Origin: a virus
Lineage: Duplodnaviria > Heunggongvirae > Uroviricota > Caudoviricetes
Reading direction: 5' to 3' (one strand)
IMG/VR virus record: IMGVR_UViG_2657245509_000010
Length of the DNA: 11,242 bases
The notes under the pieces were generated by a model. The model had not been told where the DNA came from, did no database searches, and was given only the letters and a program-made list of their open reading frames with translations. The position numbers were made by a program, and so were the translations under genes. This document shows, piece after piece, positions 2,715-4,110 of the stretch. The number at the start of each line of letters is the position of its first letter. The first letter of the stretch is position 1.

Positions 2715-2903
2715 GTGTTAAGCACTGATCGGTTTATACGTGAAAAAGAATGCGAAAAACTAACCGGCCTTAGCCGTACGTGTCGCTACCGCCTGGAAAA
2801 GGCCGGACAATTCCCATCACGTCGTAAACTTGGCGGTCGTTCCGTTGGCTGGTCTTTATCCGAGGTTCTGGCCTGGAAGGATAGCTGCAAGGCAGTTCAT
2901 TAA
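2715..2903 (+). CDS. alpA: AlpA-family transcriptional regulator / excisionase-like protein (GTG start)
   Basis: 'LTGLSRTCRYRLEKAGQFPSRRKLGGRSVGWSLSEVLAWK' matches the AlpA/phage-excisionase HTH pattern; strong SD 'agggggc' 5 nt upstream of the GTG; located just after int as in Gram-negative PICIs. Confidence 0.85.
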   Translation: MLSTDRFIREKECEKLTGLSRTCRYRLEKAGQFPSRRKLGGRSVGWSLSEVLAWKDSCKAVH

Positions 2904-3049
2904 TCACGCTGGCGGCACACAGCCGCCACACATCAATCATCTGAACACAGAGCTATAACCATGAAGATTGAATATACGCCAGAACGTGGGCGGGGATTCG
3001 TTCGCCCTGGTGAGACTGGAAAACCACAAAATTGGGGTTTTTCAGGCAT

Positions 3050-3078
3050 AAAAAAAGCGGCCCCGAAATGGAGCCGCC
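3050..3078 (-). terminator. Probable rho-independent terminator for minus-strand transcripts (GC stem then T7 on the minus strand)
   Basis: Plus strand 'aaaaaaagcggccccgaaatggagccgc'; on the minus strand a gcggc/gccgc stem is followed by TTTTTTT. Confidence 0.45.
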
Positions 3079-3172
3079 TTTCTGAACAGATAACCCGCTG
3101 CGCCTTATGTGTATATGATCCCAAACATAAGCACGGGGATGATAGCCGCTATCAGGCTGGTGGGCAATGCTA

Positions 3173-3361
3173 TCAGTCTGGTTCAGTTCGTTGCCATACC
3201 TGCAATGGGCGCGTTTCCCTGTACTCTTTAAGGAATTGCTCAAGGGCAAAAGCACATGGCGCGAATCTTTCTGATTCATGCTCTATCTTTCTGCGCCGTC
3301 TTTTCCGTGCCGGTGATAATGTTTTGGTCAATTCTTTATCGGTCATTGTGTTGTCCTGCAT
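3173..3361 (-). CDS. Hypothetical small basic protein, downstream of the RHH gene on the minus strand (start uncertain; possibly ATG at 3346)
   Basis: ORF-track ORF; arginine/lysine-rich segment 'ARKRRRRK'; no strong SD, so low confidence. Confidence 0.3.
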   Translation of the reverse strand: MQDNTMTDKELTKTLSPARKRRRRKIEHESERFAPCAFALEQFLKEYRETRPLQVWQRTEPD

Positions 3362-3403
3362 AGCAATGCGCCGTAATACCTCACACCACGGCGCTGATAG
3401 TTT

Positions 3404-3577
3404 TTATCCTTTGGGTTCTATGCCGCGTTGCTGTAATTCTTTGCGGAGAACGCGTTTAATCCAAGTGGCTAAAGATGTGTCGCCATCGGCCTTAGCAGCT
3501 TCTTCTAGCTGCGCTCTGAAGTCTTCCGGTAATCGCATTTGGTATGGAGGCGAACGTTTTTCTAATGGTGTTGACAT
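3404..3577 (-). CDS. Arc/MetJ-type ribbon-helix-helix transcriptional repressor (57 aa); not in the ORF track
   Basis: Minus-strand translation 'MSTPLEKRSPPYQMRLPEDFRAQLEEAAKADGDTSLATWIKRVLRKELQQRGIEPKG' fits the Arc-family pattern (beta-strand 'YQMRLP', then two helices). Divergent from the rightward operon, with palindromic operators at its 5' end. Confidence 0.75.
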   Translation of the reverse strand: MSTPLEKRSPPYQMRLPEDFRAQLEEAAKADGDTSLATWIKRVLRKELQQRGIEPKG

Positions 3578-3645
3578 GGTAATTACCCTTTATTGCTATA
3601 CCTACATGGTAATTACCATTGTACTTGCCATTACACAAAAATCAA
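3571..3645. promoter_or_regulatory. Divergent control region with two copies of the palindrome GGTAATTACC (3578-3587, 3608-3617) and a minus-strand promoter (-10 TACAAT 3618-3623, -35 TTGATT 3640-3645); a perfect TTGACA on the plus strand at 3571-3576
   Basis: Both palindromes are preceded by 'ACAT' and are 30 bp centre-to-centre. One abuts the RHH start codon and the other abuts the putative -10, the classic autorepressor layout. The plus-strand -10 is weak. Confidence 0.6.
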
Positions 3646-3707
3646 CGCCCCGCAGTGCTGGGAACACATACGGGGCGTCTAACCAACAACGTAAACTAGG
3701 AGCCGTT

Positions 3708-3905
3708 ATGGTTGCCGTAAATCATATACCACACCTTGTACACACACAAACGGCCTTTGTGTGGCGTTTTCTGGCACTGAGTGCCGGAGAATCTCAAATC
3801 ATCCACGTAACCGCCTGGACGGAACGCGAAGCGCGTAACCGTTGCCCGTCCGGTTGTGTTGCTGTATTTGCCGCCCGTATTCGTCAGGAGGTGCGCCATG
3901 ATTAA
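3708..3905 (+). CDS. Icd-like (host cell division inhibitor-like) small protein, 65 aa
   Basis: 'FVWRFLALSAGESQIIHVTAWTEREARNRC...VFAARIRQEV' resembles the Icd-like proteins of enterobacterial P4-like and PICI elements (from memory). RBS 'aggag' 6 nt upstream. It is the true gene inside the chimeric 314-aa track ORF. Confidence 0.6.
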   Translation: MVAVNHIPHLVHTQTAFVWRFLALSAGESQIIHVTAWTEREARNRCPSGCVAVFAARIRQEVRHD

Positions 3906-4110
3906 TCTGTCACTTACTGACCTTAACCGCATTCAGTTTCGTGAGAAATTCACAGGGCAGCTACTGGTCAATGTGGATAAAGGTCGCGTGGTGTGTAATT
4001 ACCACTTACCAGATGAAGCAATTGTCGCCACAAGGGAATCATTACAGGAAATCACAAAACGTGCCGGAATGATTAACACGAATATTCAGGGGATGCTTTA
4101 TGCACAATAA
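3898..4110 (+). CDS. Hypothetical protein (70 aa)
   Basis: ATG overlaps the stop of the upstream gene (translational coupling); no family recognised. Confidence 0.5.
   Translation: MINLSLTDLNRIQFREKFTGQLLVNVDKGRVVCNYHLPDEAIVATRESLQEITKRAGMINTNIQGMLYAQ

Follow-up and report, generated by a model that had tools for sequence, protein, structure and literature searches.

Induction of Gram-negative phage-inducible chromosomal islands (PICIs) requires AlpA, an activator that is helper-dependent and self-activating, and a global repressor in these islands has been called unclear (PMC6092414). A later paper on capsid-forming islands reports that AlpA over-expression drives the reproduction of the island EcCIEDL933, and for the position downstream of alpA it mentions just a "gene of unknown function" that varies. 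In phage P22, the immI region encodes the ribbon-helix-helix (RHH) repressors Mnt and Arc and the sar antisense RNA (PMC2629481). CopG and the antisense RNAII of pMV158 both limit the initiator (PMC4485353). RNA-based immunity is represented by P1 immI (C4 RNA-icd-ant), the P4 CI RNA and the RNAs of the C4/isrK type found in some Gram-negative PICIs (PMC10111431). The DNA considered here is the IMG/VR record IMGVR_UViG_2657245509_000010 (Caudoviricetes), a stretch of 11,242 nucleotides referred to as the window, which is an EcCICFT073-like PICI. A small RHH gene, two identical palindromes and a predicted antisense RNA at the head of its replication genes are probably the off switch of the island, and the 57-amino-acid RHH protein, acting as a dimer, is likely to be its immunity-type repressor. 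An initial annotation had proposed a distinct control switch at this position on the premise that Gram-negative PICIs are generally described as depending on AlpA and lacking a dedicated repressor. The proposal is supported by purifying selection, fold, covariation, cassette exchange and synteny and by the literature cited above, with repression as the proposed outcome. No protein repressor of Gram-negative PICIs is described in the literature that could be searched, and searches aimed at an RHH, YlcI or YnfO repressor in these islands yielded none.

In its logic, the switch resembles P22 immI, pMV158 and the P1/P4 immunity systems; its gene arrangement, its type of RNA and its target set it apart from each of them. 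In P22 the operators lie inside overlapping, opposed promoters (Pant/Pmnt), as is predicted for the window. Both P22 immI and the window appear to combine a small RHH repressor with a short cis-antisense RNA over the ribosome site of the controlled gene. However, P22 has two RHH genes whereas the window has one, and the P22 region controls an antirepressor whereas the proposed target here is an icd-like gene leading to replication genes. A further difference from P22 is that the predicted antisense-RNA terminator in the window overlaps the -35 element of the repressor promoter. In pMV158, copG is the first gene of the operon that it represses, whereas the RHH gene of the window lies on the opposite strand with its own predicted promoter, in an integrated phage satellite with immunity-like allelic types. 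The likeness to P1 and P4 is an RNA regulator heading an icd or icd-like operon, in the zone between alpA and the replication genes. The C4 and CI RNAs are processed from the strand of the target, on which they act in trans through short complementary boxes, whereas the RNA of the window is predicted to be cis-antisense and is accompanied by a predicted protein repressor. A search of Rfam with the whole window, on both strands and at a permissive threshold (E ≤ 1), returned no match to C4, isrK or any other family, so the RNA is not regarded as a relative of C4, CI or isrK. As with the master repressors Stl of the Staphylococcus aureus pathogenicity islands (SaPIs) and Rpr of Gram-positive PICIs, the predicted repressor gene is transcribed away from the replication operon and the sites are intergenic (PMC6092414). 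Unlike the RHH protein, Stl and Rpr are large helix-turn-helix proteins of unrelated fold, and unlike SaPI induction, induction of Gram-negative PICIs needs AlpA. In contrast to SaPI Stl and Rpr, we know of no helper-phage antirepressor for the RHH protein.

The RHH gene occupies positions 3404-3577 of the minus strand, and its product is MSTPLEKRSPPYQMRLPEDFRAQLEEAAKADGDTSLATWIKRVLRKELQQRGIEPKG. The initial annotation had described a minus-strand open reading frame (ORF) of 57 amino acids with an RHH signature, and its existence as a gene is confirmed by fold, selection and distribution. Among 5.8 billion proteins searched there are 93 homologues with 54-98% identity, nearly all of 56-58 amino acids, from four gammaproteobacterial orders (Enterobacterales, Pasteurellales, Aeromonadales and Orbales); a few of them are already named "Arc family DNA-binding protein". 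An exhaustive profile search of 1.84 billion clusters gave just 36 cluster representatives, and the family is thus compact at the sequence level. Across 26 unique alleles of 57 codons, variable sites number 32, 22 and 53 at the first, second and third codon positions, and single-base codon differences are synonymous in 5430 cases and nonsynonymous in 1473 (3.7:1). This pattern of substitution marks the ORF as a genuine gene on which purifying selection acts. The last residues of the protein, RGIEPKG (3404-3424), are kept even in alleles that are otherwise 46% identical, and also in a tandem paralogue at locus L005. Possible roles of this tail are to anchor recombination, to assist oligomerisation or to be the target of degradation or of an antirepressor.

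The RHH ORF is unannotated in the RefSeq records of O157:H7, where PGAP places a plus-strand "Icd-like" pseudogene over it at 2961-3554. The plus-strand frame is open for 945 nucleotides (2961-3905) and annotated accordingly in RefSeq, which would favour the reading that the minus-strand ORF is no gene and that the plus-strand ORF is the real feature. This is extremely improbable. The third-position variability and the synonymous excess fall in the minus-strand frame, and the minus-strand protein is conserved in four orders. In the plus frame, the C-terminal Icd part alone has a protein-family match. This frame reads through the predicted promoters, operators and RNA hairpin, and its portion antisense to the RHH gene stays open in 19 of 26 relatives and is broken in the other 7. 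The long ORF and the pseudogene were therefore rejected as an antisense artefact. The frame runs antisense through the downstream small ORF (orf62), the RHH gene, the operators and the RNA hairpin and into the icd-like gene. Counterparts occur in EcCIEDL933 (L069, 2804-3547) and in L072 (5267-6553), and the names given by PGAP vary between "Icd-like" pseudogene, "ash family protein" and a 247-amino-acid hypothetical protein. In hundreds of E. coli RefSeq genomes this spurious plus-strand ORF masks the minus-strand genes, which amounts to a systematic annotation error.

The RHH protein has the topology of the RHH superfamily, i.e. a beta-strand, helix A, a turn and helix B in about 45 residues, with a G-x-(S/T/N) turn between the helices and an alternation of polar and hydrophobic residues in the N-terminal strand. 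In the family alignment the motif DGD(T/S)S is nearly invariant and the strand Q-Y-Q-M-R-L is conserved. An AlphaFold2 model of the monomer, built with the family alignment, has an extended N-terminus and helices at residues 18-31 and 36-50 (pLDDT 75). The beta-strand is not formed in this monomer model, and the DNA-reading sheet of the dimer is a prediction. The RHH profile aligns in register with P22 Arc over the beta-strand and helix A (RSPQYQMRL.EEF...DGDT against KMPQFNLRWPREV...ENGRS), with the Arc sequence checked against 1arq. Comparison with RHH families by hidden Markov model gave a split result. PHROG 228 ("Arc-like repressor") was matched at 1.5e-6, whereas the Pfam Arc-like domain PF03869 scored 14.3 bits (E 0.038), which is below its gathering threshold of 20.4. 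The Pfam and NCBIfam searches with the protein yielded sub-threshold matches only, and among the 46 family members the Pfam Arc domain was matched at E ≤ 0.01 in 8 (best 1.5e-4). Profile searches against the Protein Data Bank matched only designed helical-repeat proteins through a spurious helix-hairpin similarity, and the fold comparison was used instead. The protein is thus filed as RHH-fold and Arc-like, yet it is no curated member of the Pfam Arc family; the two-helix model, the RHH topology and the alignment in register with Arc all speak against the absence of an RHH fold.

The two identical palindromes of 10 base pairs (bp) reported in the initial annotation, 30 bp apart with one at the start codon, are exact copies of GGTAATTACC at 3578-3587 (O1) and 3608-3617 (O2). 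O1 adjoins the ATG of the RHH gene (CAT at 3575-3577), in the spacer of a predicted rightward promoter, and its position is conserved in about 40 loci. O2 is part of a perfect 14-bp palindrome (3606-3619) and lies over the predicted starts of both promoters described below. The repeat extends to 17 nucleotides, ACATGGTAATTACC(C/A)TT, with a start-to-start spacing of 30. With at most one mismatch, GGTAATTACC occurs at 3 sites in the window against 0.30 expected, a count that none of 200 shuffles reached. In 66 loci of other species two palindrome copies precede the RHH gene, one of them adjoining the ATG, and in most of these loci the second copy lies 30-35 bp upstream of the first, about three helical turns. 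The sequence of the palindrome changes with the beta-strand of the protein. GGTAATTACC goes with KRSP(Q/P)(Y/F)QMRL, TGTAATTACA with KTDQYQ(I/L)RL, GGTATATACC with KRSPQFPMRL and GTGTAATGACAC with GNPPFQFRL, i.e. four operator classes match four beta-strand classes, and in the window the predicted sites overlap both predicted promoters. Comparative evidence of this kind supports the palindromes as operators of the RHH protein. The third site, the near-operator TGTAATTACC with one mismatch, lies at 3994-4003 (plus strand), about 390 bp to the right of O2 and inside a hypothetical gene (3898-4110). It is found in near-identical loci only, so its conservation is uninformative, and it may be a chance occurrence.

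A comparison of two O157:H7 islands bears on the same question. AlpA (WP_000953272.1) is identical in the window and EcCIEDL933, and on both flanks of the locus the two islands are 95-100% identical, whereas across 3420-3660 only, identity falls to 48-66%. This divergent block spans the recognition part of the RHH protein, the repeats, the promoters and half of the RNA hairpin. The junctions of the mosaic lie in the 3' end of the RHH gene that codes for RGIEPKG and in the RNA hairpin. The RHH allele of EcCIEDL933 has 63 amino acids and a TTG start, is 46% identical to that of the window (E 2e-15) and is accompanied by different repeats, GTGGTCACCT. Because the swapped block holds both the protein and the sites between nearly identical flanks, the two are inherited and exchanged as one unit, and they are best read as an immunity-type repressor/operator cassette, as in phage immunity regions. 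A different assignment would have the palindromes bound by AlpA, a DNA-binding protein whose gene lies about 700 bp away, by integrase or by a host or helper-phage protein, or would make them replication or packaging signals beside which the RHH gene lies incidentally. This is highly unlikely. The repeats differ between two islands with identical AlpA and so do not track that protein; they change with the RHH beta-strand across lineages, and their distance from the RHH start codon and from the promoter hexamers is constant.

The arrangement of the promoters departs in part from the initial annotation, which had placed a TACAAT -10 element beside the second palindrome within a divergent promoter. 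TACAAT at 3618-3623 does flank the second palindrome; since it lies on the minus strand, it is the -10 element of the RHH gene's own predicted leftward promoter (P_L) and does not serve the rightward operon. A promoter scan places P_L at 3645-3618 of the minus strand (TTGATT-16-TACAAT), with a predicted start inside O2 at about 3610-3613. The predicted rightward promoter (P_R; plus strand, 3571-3599) has a perfect -35 element TTGACA at 3571-3576, a spacer of 17 nucleotides that contains O1, and a weak -10 element TGCTAT at 3594-3599. TTGACA is the complement of ATG-TCA-A and thus lies over the RHH start codon. It is found in the same place in 40 of 45 loci, and the Ser2 codon of the RHH gene is TCA in all 40 of 40 loci, whereas the other Ser codons of the gene are mixed (TCT 25, TCA 20, TCC 11, TCG 7, AGC 3, AGT 2). 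At 17 nucleotides downstream of TTGACA, relatives have TATGAT, TATTAT, TATTTT or CATAAT, and an 86%-identical relative has TACTAT as its P_R -10 element. A strict promoter scan did not detect P_R in the window, and its prediction rests on this conservation. From the positions of the -35 and -10 elements, P_R and P_L would overlap face-to-face, with O1 in the P_R spacer and O2 at both start points; the promoter is therefore not divergent in the classical sense. These assignments, and the activity of both promoters, are predictions.

A further component, missed in the initial annotation, is a predicted cis-antisense RNA of about 80 nucleotides running from about 3714 to about 3637 on the minus strand (element 3630-3715), which would cover the Shine-Dalgarno sequence and AUG of the icd-like gene. 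A terminator hairpin at 3645-3678, to the right of O2, is kept in all loci. RNAalifold gives it 9 pairs, 6 of them with compensatory changes. The asymmetry between strands is pronounced, as core hairpin pairs show 17 G-U pairs and 6 mismatches on the minus strand against 2 and 21 on the plus strand, and extended pairs show 57 and 25 against 1 and 81. In the minus-strand alignment 93.6% of cells are paired (slid controls, 30-48%), and double changes occur in 11 of 13 pairs, a result reached by 0 of 500 shuffles, although these shuffle statistics overstate independence because the alignment rows are phylogenetically related. On the minus strand the hairpin is followed by a U-tract, UUGAUUUUU, which overlaps the -35 element of P_L. 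The hairpin was also considered as a leader structure of the rightward mRNA; this reading was rejected on two grounds, namely that among the 21 mismatch cells of the plus strand 15 are G-U pairs when read on the minus strand, and that the U-tract is present on the minus strand only.

The predicted promoter of the antisense RNA has its -10 element, TATGAT, at 3721-3726 of the minus strand, inside codons 5-7 of the icd-like gene. The pattern TAnnnT is present in all 36 unique sequences, exactly 10 nucleotides upstream of the reverse-complemented ATG of the first rightward gene, and 33 of the 36 have G at -14. It is kept despite 17 kinds of encoded tripeptide and despite differing downstream genes (icd-like, P4-alpha-like primase and others). 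The RNA is predicted to fold with -33.6 kcal/mol (z -3.8) into a 5' stem-loop that carries an anti-Shine-Dalgarno CUCC in a 12-nucleotide loop, with the terminator hairpin after it. When the 36 sequences were made into a covariance model, this gave full-length matches on the RHH strand, directly upstream of the RHH gene, in loci outside the training set, e.g. EcCIEDL933 (58.5 bits), EcCICFT073 (53.1 bits), Pasteurella Pmp8 and Aeromonas. With a promoter of its own, a terminator and a conserved structure opposite the ribosome-binding site of its target, all predicted, the element has the features of a cis-antisense RNA, and it is taken as part of the same switch as the RHH protein. The first 15 or so codons after the cassette (MA..Q/H.TQTRPKF/Y) are common to otherwise different first genes, which encode icd-like proteins or a P4-alpha-like zinc-ribbon primase (L007-L024 in Xenorhabdus/Photorhabdus; L005, L014, L051 and L054). 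Because these codons are shared by differing genes, the comparison suggests that recombination of the cassette takes place downstream of the antisense promoter embedded there. A plus-strand terminator-like hairpin, CACACAAACGGCCTTTGTGTG followed by GCGTTTTCTG, lies at 3743-3763, about 35 nucleotides into the icd-like gene, and overlaps the presumed -35 region of the antisense promoter; it could be an attenuation site or coincide with the FVWRFLA codons by chance.

In the proposed mechanism, the N-terminal beta-strands of the RHH dimer would read O1 and O2. With O1 within the P_R spacer and O2 over the starts of P_R and P_L, bound RHH protein would block P_R and silence the operon leading from the icd-like gene to the helicase/primase replication genes; it would also limit its own synthesis through P_L. 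Because the promoters overlap and the operators lie inside both, the replication operon would be off and the RHH protein self-limiting. The antisense RNA would be made constitutively from its extended -10-type promoter in the first icd-like codons and terminate just upstream of P_L, and where rightward transcripts leak through, it would pair with their ribosome-binding site and AUG, thereby blocking translation. A helper phage that turns on alpA probably overrides the switch. AlpA-dependent transcription would run in the direction of the replication operon and convergently through the RHH gene, and because of this orientation AlpA-driven read-through could bypass P_R and disturb RHH transcription. 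The AlpA of Pseudomonas is a processive antiterminator, which is part of the basis for this step. The comparisons establish that the gene is real, its fold class, the conservation and covariation of the sites, the structure and strand of the RNA, and the synteny. Promoter activity, binding, repression and the AlpA bypass are all proposed here from sequence features.

A different role is conceivable for the same components. The RHH protein and antisense RNA may act as a copy-number or dosage controller like CopG and RNAII, which would adjust the icd-like/replication operon once the island is induced or do no more than hold Icd-like toxicity in check. They would then not be the master repressor that keeps the island silent, and quiescence would be due to a lack of AlpA. 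This is rather unlikely, though it shares the logic of pMV158, fits the weakness of P_R in the window allele and agrees with AlpA expression being enough by itself to induce related islands. Against it, immunity-like cassette swapping and divergent specificities are typical of maintenance or immunity repressors. In addition, the RHH gene has a predicted promoter of its own and runs against the direction of the operon, and would therefore be expressible in the quiescent state. Several observations nevertheless weigh against the RHH protein as immunity-type repressor. The scores for the RHH fold are modest, and the alignments are subject to the relatedness noted above. The P_R -10 element of the window, TGCTAT, is unique among 40 relatives and lacks the key A at position 2, so P_R is possibly weak here; in this O157:H7 allele it may be weak, decayed or fully AlpA-dependent. 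Lastly, AlpA over-expression alone induces related islands, and the RHH protein is therefore not the sole control.

The small basic ORF (orf62) at 3173-3361 of the minus strand lies downstream of the RHH gene and is predicted to be a co-transcribed accessory gene. The protein probably has 57 amino acids starting from Met6 (3346), and most database members of the family begin at this second Met. The RHH-orf62 unit ends, ahead of the convergent alpA, at an intrinsic terminator at 3050-3083 of the minus strand (GCGGCUCC-AUUUC-GGGGCCGC then U7; -22.4 kcal/mol, z -3.2). The ORF matches an unnamed family, PHROG 21027 (3e-16), with the conserved core EHESERFAPCAFALE-FLKEY and the invariant core ERFAPCAFALE-FLK. 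The initial annotation had offered, as an alternative, a toxin-antitoxin-like addiction pair of the RHH protein and this ORF. On such a reading the RHH protein would be the antitoxin, and the palindromes the autoregulatory operator of the pair. The two genes are adjacent on the same strand with one shared promoter and terminator, and in E. coli islands three different RHH-type genes each have a related small ORF behind them. The distribution of the small ORF does not fit a toxin, as its family is confined to E. coli and Shigella, and in the other genera examined the RHH gene stands alone or beside unrelated ORFs. As an RHH antitoxin of type II the protein would lack both a conserved partner beyond E. 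coli/Shigella and a C-terminal toxin-binding extension, since it ends about 7 residues past helix B. An identical small ORF is found behind unrelated RHH alleles, unlike co-evolving toxin-antitoxin partners. The small ORF has no match in Pfam, NCBIfam or PADLOC, and PADLOC returned no defence-system match for the RHH gene, the small ORF or their neighbours. Its AlphaFold2 model is mostly disordered with a single helix, at a confidence too low for a fold search. With the ORF lineage-restricted, mostly disordered and free of toxin matches, the toxin-antitoxin idea is unsupported and held to be very improbable, and the ORF has the appearance of an accessory gene specific to the lineage.

Many E. 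coli O157:H7 chromosomes contain the window with 100% identity, as an island between roxA and phoQ. The island carries int, alpA, the icd-like gene, DUF4222, a RepA-family helicase, SSB, PerC, a capsid gene, a decoration protein and TerS. The order of int, alpA, replication module and capsid/terS at a specific attachment site is that of Gram-negative PICIs of the EcCICFT073 type, and the attachment site and gene order are identical to those of EcCICFT073, the prototype. The alpA gene (2715-2903, plus strand; Pfam Phage_AlpA, 5.4e-17) is co-directional with the replication operon and convergent with RHH-orf62. The icd-like gene (3708-3905, plus strand; NCBIfam phage_ICD_like, 5.2e-18), the proposed target of the switch, heads the rightward replication operon, in which small ORFs, DUF4222, the RepA-family helicase and SSB come after it. 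At least 80% of the RHH-leader segment of the window is present in 535 of 5426 complete E. coli genomes, and partial matches, mainly at the RNA/icd junction, occur in 1167 of the 5426.

The same order, int ... alpA -> [<- RHH] -> small ORFs -> primase, is found in Pasteurella, Aeromonas and Gilliamella, with the RHH gene as the sole opposite-strand gene between alpA and the primase operon. In Pasteurella phage Pmp8 the RHH protein is 79% identical and annotated as hypothetical. This 15.3-kb record (OR544139.1, L068) includes an integrase remnant, an AlpA-like excisionase, primase, terminase, portal and protease and lists no tail or lysis genes; by gene content, it looks like a capsid-forming PICI and not a phage. 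EcCICFT073 and EcCIEDL933 carry allelic versions of the module. At the same locus, EcCICFT073 encodes a 59-amino-acid protein of the YlcI/YnfO family (NCBIfam NF041551), which is RHH-like with marginal similarity; it shares locus, size, orientation, neighbours and the antisense-RNA element with the RHH gene of the window. Its two direct repeats, GTGGGCCACACCT, around a TTGACG-18-TATAGT promoter differ from the repeats of the window. The RHH protein of the window scores 18.7 bits against NF041551 (cutoff 30), and hhalign gives E 0.099 for the comparison of the two proteins. In E. coli 88-3493 (L070, 3240-4560) an RHH gene and small ORF are followed in tandem by a YlcI/YnfO gene and small ORF, each module with its own antisense-RNA element, and several Photorhabdus loci (L033-L037) have two matches each to the RNA model.

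Gram-negative phage-inducible islands spread virulence, defence and resistance genes. The analysis places a conserved repressor/operator pair, as predicted, together with an antisense RNA at this very position downstream of alpA, including the prototypes EcCICFT073 and EcCIEDL933, in whose genomes the module is concealed under the spurious plus-strand ORF or labelled merely YlcI/YnfO. As a broader and more tentative possibility, the cassette may be the master immunity switch that has been missing for Gram-negative PICIs, for capsid-forming PICIs and for the P4-like satellites related to them, and helpers would have to defeat it. If so, its specificity types would be exchangeable, with three of them represented by the window, EcCIEDL933 and EcCICFT073, and helpers would induce the islands either by AlpA-driven transcription that runs convergently across the RHH gene and on into the replication operon or by a phage protein aimed at the conserved RGIEPKG tail. 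The "activator-only" model of Gram-negative PICI induction would then be incomplete. The cassette would offer an experimental handle on how these islands are kept silent, how related islands coexist and how helper phages awaken them.

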